64,000 nucleotides of DNA from Candidatus Giovannonibacteria bacterium RIFOXYD1_FULL_48_21 (GTDB lineage: Bacteria; Patescibacteriota; Minisyncoccia; JACPKW01; UBA11713). The stretch's first letter is position 1, and every line of letters begins with the position of its first letter. Where the stretch lies: assembly GCA_001778985.1 (NCBI GenBank), contig MFIU01000002.1, positions 139,930-203,929 on the forward strand, written 5' to 3'. Both the position numbers and the translations under genes were made by a program. A model generated the notes under the pieces. The model did no database searches and was not told the origin of the DNA. It worked only from the letters and a program-made list of their open reading frames with translations. Positions 2,570 through 10,501 of this stretch are shown piece by piece.

Positions 2570-4001
2570 TAACTTGAGTCGCTCTTCGCCGGGGACTCGT
2601 CCAAGCGCCAGTGGATTTCACCGCGAAAGCCAGCGGCAAAGTATACAGATACATAAAAGCGTCAATATAGCGTATTACAAAAAATCCCAGCCCATAGAAC
2701 AATAATTCCGGCCTTCTCTCCAGGACTGCGGCTATAGCCGTAAGAATATAATCCATAATAAAAACACCCACCAAGATATCCATAAAAGTTAAACTGTCCA
2801 CCCAAGTGATGATAAACCAACTGGGCAACGTGACGGGTTCGAAACCATCCATAAAGAACCACAAAATCAAAAGGGGCAAACATAAAATAAACGCGGAATA
2901 AAGAGCCATTTCTATTACGAAAGAGCCGGTGGCTAGCCAAAAGAAACTCGGCCAAAATCCATTTCGCCGCACGGTCTGCCAAAAACCAAGGTACCAGCGT
3001 CTAATCTGTTTTATATAATCGTTAAGGGTATAGGGGTCCTGATGAACGCCACTCACCCTGGTGTCATACGCAATTTTCCCCAGCCTCTTCTTGTGCAATT
3101 CAAAAGTCATATTAAAATCCTCAATCACGAGATTTGGGGCGTCAATTTCGAGTTTAGACAGAGCCGAGGCGCGATAAATACTCGGACTGCCAGGAACAAT
3201 ATAGGTAGTGTTGGAGTACTTCCAAGTTTGACCGTAGCGCATACCGTATTGAACCAAGCGCCAGAGCCTAACCCGATACGCCAGAAAGAATTTAGCCCAC
3301 GAAACGCCTCTTTCCTCTGGCCATTTAGTGGAGCCATGCCCGGCTACCGCCACCACTTTAGGGTCATCGAATAATGGAAGGGCGTATTGGAGATAAAAAG
3401 GAGAAACTTCCGCGTCGGCGTCCACTATCATTATGGCTCGATAACGCTCCGAGAGCTTAAAATTTCGCAGCAGAAAAACAAGCACCCCTGCCTTGCCGCG
3501 ATTAGGGTTGATGTCAGCGACATTCACTCCTAGTTCACGGGCGAGTTCGGCGGTGCGGTCCGTTGAAGCATCGGAGCCGACATAAATGTTTTGGGCGGGA
3601 ATAATTTTTTTTAAAGCCTTAAGGGTTGCCGCAATCGACAGCTCCTCGTTATGCGCGGGCACCATTGCGCAAGTTTCTTGGGGAGTGATTCTTTGGACGG
3701 CCAAATGGAGCTTGGTTCTAGCCTCGCGTTTTTTACGCACCCATTGGGCAGCCGGTCTCAAAACACCGCCCAGAATAACAACCATTAAAAGAAAAAACAT
3801 TAAAAGCGCCAGTTTTCCGAATAACGCGAAAACTCGGATTATTTTCCATGAAGCTCGGAGAGTTTTTTTCTGCCGAGAAGAATTAAATCTCTCCAAAGAA
3901 GCTCGGACCAACCCGATGAAGGCCCAAAAGGTAAAGTTGAAGCCGATAAGCGCGAAACTTCCTAAAACTATCCAGGTCATTTTAAAACCCAAGACTAGCA
4001 C
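2556..4001 (-). CDS. processive family-2 glycosyltransferase (cellulose/chitin/PNAG synthase-like) with multiple TM helices
   Basis: GT2 core (VPAHNEE, DADAEV) plus QIRRW = Q(Q/R)xRW motif and C-terminal TM bundle. Confidence 0.8.
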   Translation of the reverse strand: MLVLGFKMTWIVLGSFALIGFNFTFWAFIGLVRASLERFNSSRQKKTLRASWKIIRVFALFGKLALLMFFLLMVVILGGVLRPAAQWVRKKREARTKLHLAVQRITPQETCAMVPAHNEELSIAATLKALKKIIPAQNIYVGSDASTDRTAELARELGVNVADINPNRGKAGVLVFLLRNFKLSERYRAIMIVDADAEVSPFYLQYALPLFDDPKVVAVAGHGSTKWPEERGVSWAKFFLAYRVRLWRLVQYGMRYGQTWKYSNTTYIVPGSPSIYRASALSKLEIDAPNLVIEDFNMTFELHKKRLGKIAYDTRVSGVHQDPYTLNDYIKQIRRWYLGFWQTVRRNGFWPSFFWLATGSFVIEMALYSAFILCLPLLILWFFMDGFEPVTLPSWFIITWVDSLTFMDILVGVFIMDYILTAIAAVLERRPELLFYGLGFFVIRYIDAFMYLYTLPLAFAVKSTGAWTSPRRRATQVTIGP

Positions 4002-4477: not shown

Positions 4478-6904
4478 TTACTTCCCGTGGCATTTTTTAT
4501 ATTTCTTGCCCGAGCCGCAGAAACAGGGGTCGTTGCGGCCAGGCTCTTTCTTGCCTTGAGCCGCTACTTTCGACACAACCACTTTCTTCTCTTCCGGATG
4601 CTGATGCGCTCCCAAATGCTTTATCAAATGCGAAAATTGGGTCGCGAAGGAATCTTCCAGAGCGCGAAAAAGGCGAATCGCTTCGTTTTTATACTCTATC
4701 AAAGGGTCTCTCTGGCCGTAAGCGCGAAGACGCACACTGGAGCGCATATGCTCCATCATCTCCAAATGTTCCATCCAAAGAATGTCAATCGTACGCAGGA
4801 GCAGGCTTCTTAGAGCCGGAAGGAAAGCCGCGCCCAGCTCCTCTTCTTTTTTCTTCAAAACTTCATCGGTAATTTCCTCCGTCAAATATTGCTTCGAAAT
4901 CACGCGAAACTCCTCGTCCGAGCTGAAGAGAATTTTTTTTCGCTCGGAATAAACGGCGCGGCGCTGTTTATTCATCACGTCGTCGTATTCCAGAAGATGT
5001 TTTCTCGCGTCAAAGTTAAAGCCTTCGATCTTGGCCTGGGCGGATTCAAGCGCCGAGGAAATGAGTTTGGCCTCAATCGGCTCGTCCTCGGCGAGTCCAA
5101 AAGTTCCCATCATTCCCTTTATTCTTTCCGAGCCGAAAATGCGCAGGAGGTCGTCTTCCAAGGAAACAAAAAATTGGCTCGCGCCCGGGTCGCCCTGGCG
5201 GCCGGAGCGTCCCCGGAGCTGGTTGTCGATTCGGCGCGCCTCATGGCGCTCGGTGCCGAGAATAAATAAACCTCCGGCGCCTCGAACTTTCTCGGCGCTT
5301 TTGGGATCGGGTGGATTACCTCCAAGTATTATGTCTACACCTCTACCAGCTATATTAGTGGCAAGGGTAACTTTGCCGATCCCTCCAGCCTGCGCGATAA
5401 TCTGGGCTTCTTGTTCGTGGTTTTTGGCGTTCAAAACTTCGTGCGCCACACCTTCCCTTTTCAAAACCGCCGACAGCCGCTCGTTTTTTTCAATCGAAAC
5501 CGTGCCAATCAAAACCGGCTGTCCTTTTTGGTGCAGCGCCCGCACTTCATTGGCCACAGCTTTCCACTTTCCGGATTCGGTCTGGTAAACTCGGTCCGGA
5601 TAATCTTGGCGAATCATAGGCTGATTGGTAGGAATCTCCGCCACTTCCAGATTATAAACTTTGTGAAATTCCTCGGCGGAAGTGGCCGCGGTTCCGGTCA
5701 TGCCCGAAAGTTTTTTGTAGAGCCGAAAGTAATTTTGAAAAGTAATCGTGGCCAAAGTGCGCGACTCCTGCCGCACTGCCACTCCTTCTTTCGCCTCCAC
5801 GGCCTGGTGCAGTCCCTCGGACCATCTGCGTCCCGGCATCAAGCGTCCGGTAAACTCATCCACGATAATAACTTCGCCGTTCTTAACCACGTAGTCGCGC
5901 TCGCGCTTGAAAATGGCCTGAGCCCGCAAGGCCTGCTCCAGATGATGGACGTATTTGATTCCTTTCTCGGTATAAATATCTTTCAGGCCTAAAAGTCGCT
6001 CCGCCTTCTCAATGCCCTCTTCGGTAAGGGTGGCGGCCCGATGCTTTTCGTCCACTTTATAATCCTCCTCTTTCTTCAAATTCGGAACGACTTTGGCGAA
6101 AACCCGATAAAGCTCCCCGGATTCGGTGTCAGGGGCGGAAATAATCAGCGGAGTCCTGGCTTCGTCAATCAAAATTGAATCCACTTCGTCCACGATGGCG
6201 AAATTATGCTCGGCTTGAACCATCGCCTCCGGGGAATAGGCCATATTGTCCCGCAGATAATCAAAACCAAATTCGTGGTTGGTCCCGTAAGTGATGTCGG
6301 CTTGATAAGCCTCGCGCCTGGAACAAGGCCGTAAAAACTCGTGGACGACTTGAAAAGCGCCAAGCGTATCCCGCGCGGCGTCTTTTTCATTGTGAGCCGC
6401 GTCATACAGATAACTCGCTTCGTGATTCAGCACCCCCACCGTCAGCCCCAGCGCGTTGTAAATCTGTCCCATCCAGACGGCATCGCGCCTGGAAAGGTAA
6501 TCGTTCACGGTTACAATATGGACCCCCTTGTCCGAAAGCGCATTTAAATATGCCGGAAGGGTAGCAACGAGAGTTTTCCCCTCGCCGGTTTTCATCTCCG
6601 CGATTTTTCCCTGATGCAAAACTATGCCGCCCAAAAGCTGGACGTCATAATGGCGTTGACCCAGGGTGCGCTTCGCAGCCTCACGGACGAGCGCGAAAGC
6701 TTCCGGCAGAATCTCATCTAATCCGCCAGCTGGCGGATTGCCTTCCTCCAAGCGCTCTTTAAATTCTTGAGTTTTGTTTTTTAAATCTTCGTTCGAAAGC
6801 TTTTCAAATTCCGGCTCCAAAACATTGATTTCCTGAACCGTCGGTTCAAGTTTTTTAATCAGACGTTCGGCCGAACTTCCAAAAATCTTCGCGAGGACGT
6901 TCAT
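4478..6904 (-). CDS. secA: preprotein translocase ATPase SecA
   Basis: Full-length SecA with DEAD motor motifs and C-terminal zinc motif [14 protein letters not shown]. The ORF extends to 6928, but the conserved N-terminus [18 protein letters not shown] starts at M9 (6904). Confidence 0.93.
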
Positions 6905-6934
6905 AAAAACCCATAATAACTCAAACACCGCGCA

Positions 6935-6965
6935 CTTTTCAAGCGCGCGGCGCGAGTTGGTTCAT
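6935..6965 (-). terminator. GC-rich hairpin between pdaD stop and secA start (weak terminator/attenuator candidate)
   Basis: CCGCGC...GCGCGG inverted repeat followed on the minus strand by a GTTTGAGTT T-rich run. Confidence 0.25.
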
Positions 6966-6972
6966 ATTTTCC

Positions 6973-7521
6973 TCATTCAGCGTTCAGGAAGACGGCGGCG
7001 GCAAAGACTGTGGTCCAGAGCCCTTCCTTGTTGCCTATGGCAGACTGGGTGATGTTGGTGGTACGGATAATCTGCCCTGAAGCTTTGAAAAGCTGTTCCT
7101 TTTCGTCCCAAGCCGAGTCGAAATTGAATTCTATGCCAAGCGTGGTCGCAAGCATGGAGGCCGCCAAATCCTCGGCGTAGTCCCCCGCTTTCTCGTCGGT
7201 TTCCCCGAAGGCGTGGTGCTCGGAAAGATACCCGTGCATCGCGGAATCGGCGGGGACAGCCAAACCGACAGAGGCGGCAATCAGGCGGTTCGGCTCGTTG
7301 GTTGATTCGCGGTCGTACACCGCGAACACAACTTCGCCCGGCGCGAGAAACTTTAAACCTTCATCCCGCGGAAGAATTTTACAGCCGGGTGGATAAATGC
7401 TGGAAACTAAAACTAAGTTGCAGGGGGCAAGCCCTGCCGTTCGAAGTGCCAGCTCGAACGAAGCAAGCCTTTCTTTATGCACCCCAACTCCCTTGGTAAA
7501 GAAAACTGCCTTAGGAACCAT
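6973..7521 (-). CDS. pdaD: pyruvoyl-dependent arginine decarboxylase
   Basis: [21 protein letters not shown]...[11 protein letters not shown] matches the PdaD family N-terminus, including the serine self-cleavage region. Confidence 0.8.
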
Positions 7522-7576
7522 TTTCCCATACTAACAACGGCGGTTCAAAAAATACAGATGTGGAAAACCAAAAAAA

Positions 7577-7996
7577 TTATTTTCTGCGAATCCAACGGTA
7601 AAAACTGCCGGCTCGCTGGGCAAGCCGCGTGAAATGCAGGCGTTCTTTTAATTTTCGGGCGGAGCGCAAAAATTTTGAGGCACGCTTTCCCTTATACTCC
7701 CTGATTTCCCTCTCAAGCTCATCCTTGGCCTCGTCAATAGCCCCCTCCAGACTCTCGCTCAAAGCCTGGGCGTAAAGAGTTTCACTTTCGCGCGGCAGGG
7801 CTAAATTAACCTCGCATTTCCAGATTCTGCCCTCTTCATGGTGTCTGGTGGTCTTGGCCAGTTCCACGTCTAAAATATGCTCGGGTGGAAATTCCCGGCC
7901 CATTCTTTTTTCCAATGGAGCCAGAAGCTTTTCTTCGGCGATGATTTTCAGGCCGACGGTAAGTTTAAAACCAGTGGCTTTGATGCGAAGCTGCAT
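7577..7996 (-). CDS. hpf: ribosome hibernation promoting factor (HPF/RaiA family)
   Basis: MQLRIKATGFKLTVGLKIIAEEKL... sigma54-modulation / S30EA fold pattern with a basic C-terminal tail. Confidence 0.8.
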   Translation of the reverse strand: MQLRIKATGFKLTVGLKIIAEEKLLAPLEKRMGREFPPEHILDVELAKTTRHHEEGRIWKCEVNLALPRESETLYAQALSESLEGAIDEAKDELEREIREYKGKRASKFLRSARKLKERLHFTRLAQRAGSFYRWIRRK

Positions 7997-8195
7997 AATT
8001 CTTTTAAGGCCCGGGAGAGGTTGACTCCAAACTACGTCGTTGTGTGAGTACCAGTCTCCCGGGCCTTATTCATTATAACCCAAATACAAAATCCCGGTTT
8101 TACCGGGATTTTGTAAGACGTAGTTAGATTCTCCAACCGAAGCCGGAGAAACTCACTTTCGCATTATAGCAAAACTCTATTCCAAAAGTCAAGTT
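7997..8195 (-). promoter_or_regulatory. hpf promoter plus structured 5' leader (three hairpins)
   Basis: Minus-strand TTGACT (8192-8187), 17 nt, TATAAT (8169-8164). The leader holds a CUCCGGC-UUCG-GUUGGAG tetraloop hairpin (8137-8154) and a terminator-like hairpin AAAAUCCCGG-UAAAA-CCGGGAUUUU followed by GUAUUU (8087-8111). A 13-bp palindromic hairpin AAGGCCCGGGAGA...UCUCCCGGGCCUU (8005-8066) ends 8 nt before the AUG. Confidence 0.45.
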
Positions 8196-8227
8196 TTAAT
8201 CTATAATAGCGTGAATAGGTTTGAAAT

Positions 8228-8824
8228 ATGCGAGATAGAAAGATTTACGAGGTTTCCAAGCGTCTTTTAGACATAATCCTGACAATTTTAGCCATAATCC
8301 CCGCTGCTTTGCTTTTTCCGCTCATCGCGCTCGCCATAAAGCTCGATTCCGAGGGCCCGGTCTTCTATAAGCAAAAACGGGTAGGGAGATACGGACAGGA
8401 GTTCTGGCTTTTAAAATACCGCTCCATGGTTAAAAATGCCCACGAGCTCGGTGGCTGGAAGGGAAACGGTCCGGATTTGCGGCATACCCGCGTGGGGATG
8501 ATTTTGCGAAAAAGTTACCTGGACGAACTACCACAAATCATAAACATTTTGAAGGGCGAAATGTCTTTTGTCGGACCCAGGCCGGAGCGGCCGGAATATG
8601 TCGGCGAGCTGAAACAAAAAGTTCCCTCGTACGAAAAAAGGCTGGCGGTCCCGCCTGGAATTACGGGCTGGGCGCAGGTAAACATGGAAAACGACGCTTC
8701 GGTGGAAGACGCCCCAGAAAAGATAAAATACGACCTCTACTACATTGAAAACCGCTCGCTCTGGTTCGACCTCTTAATTATTTTCAAGACGATTTTTATA
8801 GTTCTGCGCCGCGAAGGACGTTAG
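8228..8824 (+). CDS. small monotopic phosphoglycosyl transferase (PglC/WbaP C-terminal-like bacterial sugar transferase)
   Basis: 198 aa with one N-terminal TM helix and conserved bacterial sugar transferase motifs (KFRSM-like LKYRSM, PRPE, GITGWAQV). Confidence 0.85.
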   Translation: MRDRKIYEVSKRLLDIILTILAIIPAALLFPLIALAIKLDSEGPVFYKQKRVGRYGQEFWLLKYRSMVKNAHELGGWKGNGPDLRHTRVGMILRKSYLDELPQIINILKGEMSFVGPRPERPEYVGELKQKVPSYEKRLAVPPGITGWAQVNMENDASVEDAPEKIKYDLYYIENRSLWFDLLIIFKTIFIVLRREGR

Positions 8825-9873
8825 CGCCCAACGGCCATCAGCTCGTTTAACTTTTGCAAAGTCAGCGGGCCGACCCTGCCGACTTGCGAAATGCCATATT
8901 GGGCCTGAATGCGTTTAACCGCGCTGGTAGTGAGCGAGCCGTAATAACCAGTAACCAGCCCTTCCGGATAGATAGCGTTATCTTTGGCAAGGAATTCCTG
9001 AAGAGTTCGAACATCGTCGCCGGTCATGCCGCGTTCAAGTTCGCGCGTAAGTCCGGCGGCCACGGGCGCGGCTGGCGTGGGCACGGCGCTCGGAGTCTGG
9101 CCAGCCCCAAAAATCTCGGCGAGCTTCGCTCTGGTTAAGGGACCTACGCGTCCAACTTGCGAAATGCCGTATTTGGCCTGGAAACGCCGGACAGCCTCAC
9201 GAGTCAAATTTCCAAAATATCCGGTGATTAATCCTTCGGGGTAAACAGATTTATCGCTTGCCAGTAAAGTCTGAAGCTTTGTGACTTCTTCACTGCTCAT
9301 GCCAAGAGAAAGGTCTTGAGTAAAAATCGGGGCGGCTCCGACGCTTACGGTCGGAATCACAACTCCGGAGGGCGTCTGAGGCACAAGGGCCGTGGTCGTG
9401 GCAACTGAAGGAGTCGTGGTTGTGCTAGTCGGGACAATGGTAATGCCACCACCACCTCCTCCGCCGCCACCTCCGCCGCCGCCTCCTCCTCCTCCGCCTG
9501 TTCCAGAATCACAAGTAGTGGAGTCAGGAGTAACGGTGAAGGTGGTTTGAGAAGCGCCAGCGCCGTTTTTAAGGATTAAGGTACTTTCAGAAGTAGAGCA
9601 TAATGAAGTAACCTGGCCAGAGCCGGTTTGAGATGTCGTATAGGTGCGCCGGGAAGGAGAAGATACGGTAATTATGTCGCCGGCATCAAGAATGACGTCG
9701 AAGTTGTTGGCGCGAACCGTAAGAGTATTGATGGCCGCGTCAGAACCAGAAACATTAAGCTCGATCCCCGCCACGCTGATGGTGGCTCCGGACTGCAAAG
9801 TGACCAGACCCGCCAAAGCGAAGAAAGGAAAGAAGAGGGCTAGGAAAATTTTCAGAAAAATTTTCATTTTCAC
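8821..9873 (-). CDS. secreted protein with Thr/Ser-rich region, 20-residue poly-Gly linker and two peptidoglycan-binding (PG_binding_1-like) repeats
   Basis: Signal peptide; G20 tract; two copies of a ...YPEGL(I/V)TGY(F/Y)G.LT..AV.R.QA.YGISQVGRVGPLT... domain. Confidence 0.7.
   Translation of the reverse strand: MKMKIFLKIFLALFFPFFALAGLVTLQSGATISVAGIELNVSGSDAAINTLTVRANNFDVILDAGDIITVSSPSRRTYTTSQTGSGQVTSLCSTSESTLILKNGAGASQTTFTVTPDSTTCDSGTGGGGGGGGGGGGGGGGGGITIVPTSTTTTPSVATTTALVPQTPSGVVIPTVSVGAAPIFTQDLSLGMSSEEVTKLQTLLASDKSVYPEGLITGYFGNLTREAVRRFQAKYGISQVGRVGPLTRAKLAEIFGAGQTPSAVPTPAAPVAAGLTRELERGMTGDDVRTLQEFLAKDNAIYPEGLVTGYYGSLTTSAVKRIQAQYGISQVGRVGPLTLQKLNELMAVGR
9437..9497 (-). repeat. low-complexity GGN codon run encoding poly-glycine
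   Basis: ccaccacctcctccgccgcc... tract inside the 8821..9873 CDS. Confidence 0.8.
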
Positions 9874-9874
9874 T

Positions 9875-10501
9875 CTACCAGCAGGGACCGGATTCCACTA
9901 TTAGGACGCCGTCAGAGGTGTCGGTCCAAAGAAGAGTAGTTGTCGCGTTCGCATAAATCCGGTAGGAAACCCCGTCCGCCCCCTGGAGTTGAATGCATCC
10001 GCCGCGATTAGCCGCGGTCGAGCCGATTCCAATGGTGGTGGTACCGGCTGAATCTATTCCCAACTGATGAAAAGGGCTAGTGGTTCCAATGCCCACGTTT
10101 CCGCCGCCTGTGGCAAGAGTAAGACCACCCTGAATGGTAGAAGTTCCCGCGGTGGTGCTGGTCGCGTTAAATCGCTGCATAGTTAGGAGCCCGGCGATAA
10201 CAGCGTCTCCGTTTACTCCGAGAACCGTCCCTGGAGTCGAGGTTCCGATTCCCACTCGGTTCGTAGAATAGTCAGCCACTAAAGTGGAGGTGTCTACAAT
10301 TAAACCGCCGGAAAGAGTGGTGTTGACCGCGGTTCCGGTAAAGCTTACTGTCCCCGCGACCGTGAGGTTGTCGTCAGTAGTAATGCTGGTCGAGATGGTG
10401 CTCGCCGCGTACACCGCGCCCGCCACTACCAAAATCGAGGCGAGGCTCGCCAGAACAATGTTTATCTCATCACGAAATTTTCTCATGTAAAATACAAACA
10501 A
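9875..10501 (-). CDS. secreted Thr/Gly-rich repeat protein (fibre-like, hypothetical)
   Basis: N-terminal signal anchor; repeated (V/I)GIGT(S/T)(S/T)P and GGL(T/I) motifs; C-terminal Cys pair. Confidence 0.5.
   Translation of the reverse strand: MFVFYMRKFRDEINIVLASLASILVVAGAVYAASTISTSITTDDNLTVAGTVSFTGTAVNTTLSGGLIVDTSTLVADYSTNRVGIGTSTPGTVLGVNGDAVIAGLLTMQRFNATSTTAGTSTIQGGLTLATGGGNVGIGTTSPFHQLGIDSAGTTTIGIGSTAANRGGCIQLQGADGVSYRIYANATTTLLWTDTSDGVLIVESGPCW

Follow-up and report, generated by a model that had tools for sequence, protein, structure and literature searches.

A candidate small RNA encoded in tandem with the hpf-operon leader to which it may bind in Candidatus Giovannonibacteria

In the stretch of DNA analysed here (64,000 nucleotides [nt] of contig MFIU01000002.1, hereafter the window), the gene for the ribosome-hibernation factor HPF is separated from a divergent sugar-transferase gene by a 231-nt gap, and all the elements described below lie in this gap, on the minus strand. 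Homologue searches with the HPF protein place the window in Candidatus Giovannonibacteria, a lineage of the Candidate Phyla Radiation (CPR, or Patescibacteria), whose members have tiny genomes with few recognizable regulators. The hpf gene is the first of an hpf-PvlArgDC-secA unit, and the hpf-secA order is kept in the relatives. The gap probably accommodates two tandem units, the first encoding a new base-pairing small RNA and the second starting with the target of this RNA, the leader of the hpf operon, with the two RNAs joined in a two-helix complex of the kissing or pseudoknot-like type. The genes and elements are listed below in the order in which they are met on the hpf-sense strand.

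8228 to 8824, plus strand: Bac_transf, the sugar-transferase gene, divergent from hpf.
8163 to 8192, minus strand: promoter P1, composed of TTGACT (8192-8187), an 18-nt spacer and TGcTATAAT (8171-8163), with 11 of 12 consensus positions.
8081 to 8158, minus strand: predicted small RNA of ~75 to 78 nt, its 5' end placed from the -10 box and its 3' end from the U tract.
8151 to 8156, minus strand: box a1, GUGAGU, at the 5' end of the small RNA, complementary to b1; the GUGRG core is found in 12 of 12 small RNAs.
8129 to 8150, minus strand: hairpin hp1 with a UUCG tetraloop; a hairpin folds here in every relative.
8117 to 8125, minus strand: box a2, A-ACUACGUC, which pairs with b2, the two showing compensatory changes.
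8082 to 8115, minus strand: intrinsic terminator from a terminator scan, with the extended stem UACAAAAUCCCGG/CCGGGAUUUUGUA and a U tract.
8072 to 8077, minus strand: TATAAT, the likely -10 box of a second promoter, P2; invariant in 10 of 10 aligned sequences and also present in the murB-type loci (see below).
8006 to 8067, minus strand: hpf leader hairpin with a stem of 13 base pairs (bp) (8067-8055 with 8018-8006) and a 36-nt loop; -37.6 kcal/mol, z = -6.5.
8044 to 8049, minus strand: box b1, ACUCAC, in the leader loop, complementary to a1; invariant in 13 sequences.
8030 to 8038, minus strand: box b2, GACGUAGU-U, in the leader loop, which pairs with a2; part of the apical loop in predicted folds.
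8024 to 8028, minus strand: GGAGU, in the leader loop; invariant in 13 sequences.
7577 to 7996, minus strand: hpf, encoding a short HPF/RaiA protein of 139 amino acids (Pfam PF02482, S30AE, E = 2e-10).

The original prediction for this region was a single, highly structured leader of ~190 nt with a terminator-like hairpin, acting as an attenuator or riboregulator. That the region is highly structured is supported by fold prediction: the sequence upstream of hpf folds at -76.5 kcal/mol, compared with -43.8 +/- 4.0 kcal/mol for 200 shuffled versions (z = -8.2), none of which was as stable. The hairpins proved to be conserved in homologous loci, with compensatory changes across 13 sequences, and a scan of Rfam matched the region to no described family. 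The riboregulator part of the proposal holds in the form of a small-RNA/leader pair, and the attenuator part is not supported. The prediction omitted the main feature of the locus, namely boxes in the upstream unit that are complementary to, and covary with, the loop of the downstream one.

Among the hpf loci gathered from genome, metagenome and assembly collections, the two-unit architecture was found in 13 distinct Giovannonibacteria loci, that is, in the window and 12 others, and therefore it is not a chance feature. Groundwater samples from Rifle or Hainich are the source of L001-L003, L013 and L029. Ten of these distinct loci (the window and 9 relatives, with HPF identities of at least 66%) share the layout upstream of hpf: promoter, GUGRGU(G), variable hairpin, ACUACGUC, GC-rich terminator with U tract, spacer with TATAAT and long hairpin, in this order on the RNA strand. 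The hpf homologues with at most 60% identity (in loci L004, L008 and L010) have nothing of the kind directly upstream of hpf, and the element is found there upstream of murB. In L008/L009, L031-L033 and L010/L011, the small unit and the loop motif lie ~1 kb further upstream, before murB, with hpf following immediately after murB; L004 also has the loop motif before murB, and the stretch examined there ends short of the expected position of the small RNA. The leader stem of these murB-type genomes has a wholly different sequence (GGGCUACAGAG/CUCUGUAGCCC). No element was seen in the short stretches available for L024 and L020. The loop motif of L031 (1750-1960) and L010 (80-270) is nested or duplicated, with GACGUAGUUUG...GGAGUCAACC present twice within an outer stem that is homologous to the stem of the window, which suggests two binding sites for the small RNA. 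A separate observation concerns the murB-hpf gap of L004 (1290-1480) and L020 (~100-260), which holds an extremely basic mini-open reading frame (ORF) encoding 18 amino acids (MAKKKAKKSKKAKKSRRR / MAKRKKAKKAAKKSRRR) with its own promoter-like site and terminator. It occurs where there is no small RNA directly upstream of hpf, and its product could be a tiny ribosome-associated peptide.

Within the 64-kb window, two sites match 11 of 12 promoter consensus positions; promoter P1, which opens the upstream unit, is one of them, and it alone has a TG-extended -10 box. Its -35 box and the sequence TTGCTATAMT are invariant across 10 aligned relatives, and the promoter is also present in L008 and L031. 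This is the near-consensus minus-strand promoter of the original prediction, with the boxes as called (TTGACT and TATAAT) and a spacer of 18 nt, not 17. P1 would drive the synthesis of a non-coding RNA of ~75 nt consisting of a1, a variable hairpin, a2 and an intrinsic terminator. The variable hairpin, in the window the UUCG-tetraloop hairpin noted earlier and now placed at 8150-8129, is represented among the relatives by at least four unrelated stems, capped by UUCG, GAAA, GCAA or other loops. The terminator (hairpin 8115-8085, U tract to 8082), likewise anticipated as a canonical stem plus U tract, has a predicted energy of -20.7 kcal/mol (z = -6.8), and a terminator of -19 to -24 kcal/mol, with a U tract, is predicted in every species compared. 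As had been pointed out, no flanking gene needs a terminator at this place, the neighbouring Bac_transf being divergent. In the consensus structure of the small RNA, compensatory changes are seen in 9 of the 21 pairs. All 9 belong to the terminator stem or to hp1, and among them is the pair at the foot of the extended stem, which is U-A in the window and L022 and C-G elsewhere. Outside the promoter and terminator, only ~14 nucleotides of the small RNA are conserved.

There is no conserved reading frame in the small RNA, in which the differences in hairpin length are not multiples of 3; a GTG-started frame of 10 codons in the window was considered as a coding upstream unit and rejected, as the frame is not conserved. 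A public 220-amino-acid "HPF" sequence (P0004, from L001 region 2760-3417) is an artefact of ORF calling, in which the N-terminal 81 residues come from translating the small RNA, the spacer and the leader hairpin. Box a2 occurs only once in the window and once per locus. Pattern searches of the window and all loci for copies resembling the small RNA or for other b2-like targets returned only the known sites, and a scan of viral contigs gave a single chance match, located in a GC-rich phage ORF.

The downstream unit begins with the leader hairpin. The 13-bp stem of the original prediction is present, with its coordinates corrected to 8067-8006 and its distance from the hpf ATG (7996) corrected to 9 nt; the AUG and these 9 nt fall outside the hairpin. 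All 11 counted pairs of the stem are paired in 100% of the 13 sequences, and 8 of the 11 show compensatory changes. While the stem sequence changes, the 36-nt loop, CUGGYACUCAC-N5-GACGUAGU-N2-4-GGAGUYRRCC, stays nearly invariant. Within the loop, b1 has an alternative partner in the loop's own GGAGU: ACUC:GAGU pairing is predicted in all folds, and neither side ever varies, which leaves no covariation test for it. The linker between b1 and b2 consists of 5 A-rich nucleotides that always include AA. The loop GGAGU was considered as the Shine-Dalgarno sequence of hpf and rejected because it lies 28 nt from the AUG (~75 nt in L008), is separated from it by the 3' arm of the stem and is followed by no start codon, and also because the genome is poor in such sequences: GGAG, GAGG or AGGA is found at -20 to -4 in only 8 of the 57 long ORFs of the window. 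Most ORF starts in the window are preceded by A/U-rich sequence, and the few Shine-Dalgarno sequences that are present are canonical (AAGGAGGTG).

Both boxes of the small RNA have a counterpart in this loop, with a1 (GUGAGU, 8156-8151) complementary to b1 (ACUCAC, 8049-8044) and a2 (A-ACUACGUC, 8125-8117) complementary to b2 (GACGUAGU-U, 8038-8030). The 8-bp core of a2:b2 is paired in 13 of 13 sequences. L028 combines a2 ACUAUGUC with b2 GACAUAGU, and L029 combines a2 ACUACGUU with b2 AACGUAGU, each pair being exactly complementary; in both cases, C:G has been replaced by U:A, independently and at different positions, and no other core substitutions are found where both boxes are visible. In L027, a flanking a2:b2 pair is changed from A:U to G:C. 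Overall, 95.5% of cells are paired, compared with 29-38% after the partners have been shifted against each other by 1-3 columns, and the observed covariation score was reached by none of 500 shuffles. At the level of comparative analysis, these compensatory exchanges show a2 and b2 to be pairing partners. The 5-6-bp core of a1:b1 is invariant except for A-to-G changes in L027 and L028, both of which leave a G.U pair; we infer the second helix from this pattern, which is compatible with pairing without demonstrating it. The net hybridization energy of the two helices, with opening costs subtracted, is predicted to be -5 to -10 kcal/mol.

The boxes also form an inverted repeat in DNA, and complementarity in a single sequence is, when taken alone, only moderately unlikely: a perfect complementary run of 8-9 nt arises in 0.4-1.9% of dinucleotide shuffles. 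On such grounds, the boxes could be seen as half-sites of a DNA operator bound by a transcription factor, or the whole arrangement as a coincidence between a terminator-plus-promoter cluster and a stabilizing 5' hairpin, with no RNA-RNA relationship. We consider this very unlikely. A protein-binding site present in two copies would not be expected to acquire two different complementary double substitutions, and the distance from box to box differs by ~50 nt among the loci. Read on the other strand, moreover, the G.U pairs that a1:b1 and all stems tolerate would become A.C mismatches. Because G.U pairs occur in all stems, selection acts on RNA of the hpf-sense strand and not on DNA palindromes.

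The upstream and downstream units would be separate transcripts, judging from the strong terminator, the maintenance of its stem and U tract, and the TATAAT sequence that stays fixed at the foot of the leader while the spacer drifts. TATAAT lies 5-7 nt before the leader stem, in an otherwise unconserved spacer of variable length (0 to ~50 nt), and in most relatives a -35-like box, GTAACA, is found 18 nt upstream of it. The window (8078-8084, as against alignment columns 116-150) is without the 25-50-nt spacer that in all the relatives lies between the terminator and TATAAT and carries GTAACA; L013, whose HPF is 90% identical to that of the window, retains the GTAACA spacer. An invariant TATAAT in this position, past the terminator and ahead of the hpf hairpin, suggests that hpf has a transcription start of its own, and hpf mRNA would accordingly begin from its own -10 box, at the foot of the 13-bp hairpin. 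This speaks against the single ~190-nt leader of the original prediction.

A single cis-acting leader deserves consideration all the same, one in which transcription from P1 reads through into hpf, a1:b1 and a2:b2 form a long-range intramolecular H-type pseudoknot that sets the stability or translation of the mRNA, and any short RNAs are by-products. Because the box order is a1, a2, b1, b2, the two helices cross in exactly the H-type pseudoknot topology, and this holds for one molecule as well as for two. Loop 3 of H-type pseudoknots often contains AA, like the linker between b1 and b2. Several observations weigh against a trans-acting small RNA, and part of them favour the cis-acting leader directly. 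In every locus, the two units lie side by side in the same orientation, and they have moved together between the murB and hpf contexts; this fits pairing within one read-through transcript equally well, and a trans-acting RNA does not require tandem adjacency. The covariation evidence cannot distinguish intramolecular from intermolecular pairing. In the window, which lacks the likely P2 -35 box and the spacer region, read-through from P1 could matter more than elsewhere. The transcript ends are derived from consensus motifs only, and the binding site is far from the start codon, an anatomy that implies no simple translational mechanism. As to the helices themselves, a1:b1 shows no compensatory change and has mismatched end pairs in the window, L013 and L008; a2:b2 rests on two or three compensatory events, two of them from low-coverage metagenome contigs. 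On the other hand, the terminator is canonical and strong (-19 to -24 kcal/mol) and has been kept by compensatory changes together with its U tract, and an invariant TATAAT amid a spacer free in both sequence and length is what would be expected of a promoter and not of a folded RNA. On balance, the single cis-acting leader appears rather unlikely, and two transcripts that pair with each other remain the favoured interpretation.

A leader of the attenuator or riboswitch type, in which a signal toggles the terminator or the last hairpin masks the hpf start, would account for a terminator-like hairpin that lies in an apparent 5' region and is not needed by the flanking genes. The hpf gene is, besides, stress-regulated in other bacteria. 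Attenuation in cis on hpf finds no counterpart in nascent-transcript folds, which contain no conserved antiterminator. When the terminator 3' arm was left out, 0 of the 14 nucleotides of its 5' arm were paired in the window, L013 and L027, and the folds of the other species gave only idiosyncratic weak pairings of the 5' arm, none of them common among species. The sole antiterminator candidate, a1 against the CUCAC sequence at the base of the terminator stem, touches three A/U-rich base pairs. It was rejected, given that the CUCAC position covaries with the terminator 3' arm and that CUCAC is absent in L008 and L031, where a1 and b1 persist without it. Box b2 cannot influence the termination decision because it is transcribed after the terminator. 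Upstream of the terminator there is no conserved domain resembling a sensor or aptamer, only the variable hairpin and two short boxes, and there is no match in Rfam. Translational masking, the other mode proposed originally, is at odds with the position of the AUG and the 9 preceding nt outside the hairpin and with the rare use of Shine-Dalgarno sequences. Taken together, an attenuator or riboswitch-like device is highly improbable.

Under the two-transcript interpretation, two short helices, a2:b2 with 8-9 bp and a1:b1 with 6-8 bp, would hold the small RNA on the leader loop, and one specific possibility is that a1 displaces the ACUC:GAGU pairing of the loop, freeing the invariant GGAGU. The small RNA may thus control the hpf operon (murB-hpf in the distant relatives) after transcription has started. 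The hpf start region is open in silico in both the bound and the free states. Docking would be expected to change mRNA stability or processing, or the loading of ribosomes, rather than to occlude the start codon; such effects are favoured because the site lies at the far end of a stable stem and is nested even deeper in the murB-type leaders. Candidate routes include the formation of a stacked intermolecular helix of ~17 bp and the protection of the 5'-terminal stem-loop. As for the direction of regulation, the much stronger promoter of the small RNA, compared with that of the mRNA, weakly suggests repression. A more elaborate possibility, which we regard as unlikely, is that the intermolecular pseudoknot, with its crossing helices, invariant A-rich linker and released GGAGU, is read by the translation machinery or by HPF itself and serves as a feedback switch for ribosome hibernation.

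The genomic setting offers several further observations. The hpf-(arginine decarboxylase)-secA order of the window (4478-7996, minus strand) is also conserved in L008, L010 and L031. Bac_transf in the window has the opposite orientation to its counterparts in L001, L022, L026 and L027; in those four loci, the gene is co-directional, with its end just short of the small-RNA promoter. In L022 and L026, Bac_transf and a Wzy_C/TPR gene are direct neighbours; in the window, they are split by two extra minus-strand ORFs, 8821-9873 and 9875-10501. The former encodes a peptidoglycan-binding-domain protein with ~19 consecutive glycines, specified by a GGN repeat (9357-9512), a tract that is possibly prone to slippage. 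The region contains no tRNA or tmRNA.

The regulator, its target and the pairing register were all obtained here from comparative sequence alone. The predicted target, a ribosome-hibernation operon that in some lineages is joined by murB and secA, would be central to a slow-growth lifestyle. The model is concrete and can be mutated, consisting of two boxes for which nature supplies compensatory variants. Searches of the literature and Rfam found no CPR base-pairing small RNA with a defined target, and the literature searches also gave no description of a small RNA acting on hpf mRNA. Should the pseudoknot feedback switch exist, it would make this RNA a minimal functional counterpart of the raiA motif RNA and, for the Candidate Phyla Radiation, the first regulatory small RNA whose target is defined. 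The locus also offers an idea for that RNA, unexplained so far and found at the same position in other phyla: RNAs encoded upstream of hpf could act on the hpf transcript.

In Bacillota, hpf and secA are known to be adjacent, and the raiA motif RNA precedes hpf. The Giovannonibacteria loci share this neighbourhood, and as with the raiA motif RNA, they carry an RNA gene with its own predicted promoter and terminator immediately upstream of hpf (upstream of murB-hpf in L008, L010 and L031). In 66% of cases, raiA is preceded by the raiA motif RNA (RF03072), also referred to as "ModT" (PMC11706538), which is equipped with a promoter and a terminator of its own and comprises six stems (P1-P6), two internal pseudoknots and 51 conserved nucleotides in members of Bacillota and Actinomycetota (PMC10861870). 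Here, by contrast, the RNA is ~75 nt long with two plain hairpins, and it differs from the raiA motif in both covariance-model and architecture comparisons. RF03072 had no match at the gathering threshold in the window and 8 related loci, nor at E <= 10 in 7900-8300 of the window and L031 1560-1990. In the same searches, no other Rfam family rose above sub-threshold level; the sub-threshold matches to PsrR1, the rnk leader and DUF3800-I were rejected as identities, reflecting generic hairpin-plus-terminator shapes. Furthermore, the small RNA is conserved as complementary to the downstream leader, a property not reported for raiA RNAs. The common genomic niche (PMC10861870) and the strong housekeeping-type promoter could indicate a free-standing structured RNA (either a small raiA-motif analogue or one that acts on other targets or protein partners) whose main task is not the regulation of hpf and for which the leader loop is one site among others or a sponge. 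This is quite improbable, considering that the RNA has only two simple hairpins and lacks even a weak raiA match, that its only conserved nucleotides are the two boxes matching the adjacent leader, and that the 64-kb window contains no other b2-like site.

In its mode of action, the proposed complex comes closest to the two-site kissing complexes, in which a short RNA forms two separate helices of ~6-9 bp on the target leader, at least one of them at a hairpin loop, and these intermolecular helices are joined to the stems that each partner forms by itself. OxyS-fhlA (Argaman & Altuvia 2000, cited in PMC2946933) is a complex of this kind. Others are CopA-CopT, from plasmid R1, and RNAIII-rot, from Staphylococcus aureus. 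As in complexes of the CopA-CopT type, the target boxes b1 and b2 are presented in a hairpin loop of the mRNA leader, on a stem whose structure is 100% conserved. Unlike CopA, which is an antisense RNA from the opposite strand, the small RNA is encoded on the strand of its target, 45-100 nt upstream, and its complementarity is limited to 6-8 bp plus 8-9 bp; unlike OxyS, which comes from a distant locus, it is encoded in tandem with its target. It differs from all these systems, to none of which it is homologous, in that neither the start codon nor a usable ribosome-binding site is part of the loop, the order in which the helices cross is that of a pseudoknot and the host belongs to the CPR.

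In the type I toxin-antitoxin loci IstR-1/tisB and OhsC/shoB, the small RNA is likewise encoded next to its target. The resemblance extends to the presumably strong and constitutive expression of the small RNA beside the target gene and to pairing in the 5' untranslated region away from the ribosome-binding site, and HPF, as a ribosome shut-down factor, could be harmful if made in excess. However, HPF (PF02482) or MurB takes the place of a small hydrophobic toxin as the target product, the two genes follow one another in tandem and neither diverge nor overlap, and the complementarity, divided between two boxes, is far shorter. With attenuators and riboswitch platforms, the locus shares a GC-rich hairpin and U tract between a promoter and a coding sequence; it differs from them in lacking an antiterminator and a domain for sensing a ligand, tRNA or protein, and in having a conserved -10 box downstream of the terminator. 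The sequence analysis found what is typical of trans-acting small RNAs, namely a promoter and terminator of its own, no conserved ORF and compensatory complementarity to the target (a2:b2). The predicted small-RNA/leader pair is a member of the known class of base-pairing regulatory RNAs, in which it stands out for its tandem layout, its crossing two-box topology and its CPR host.

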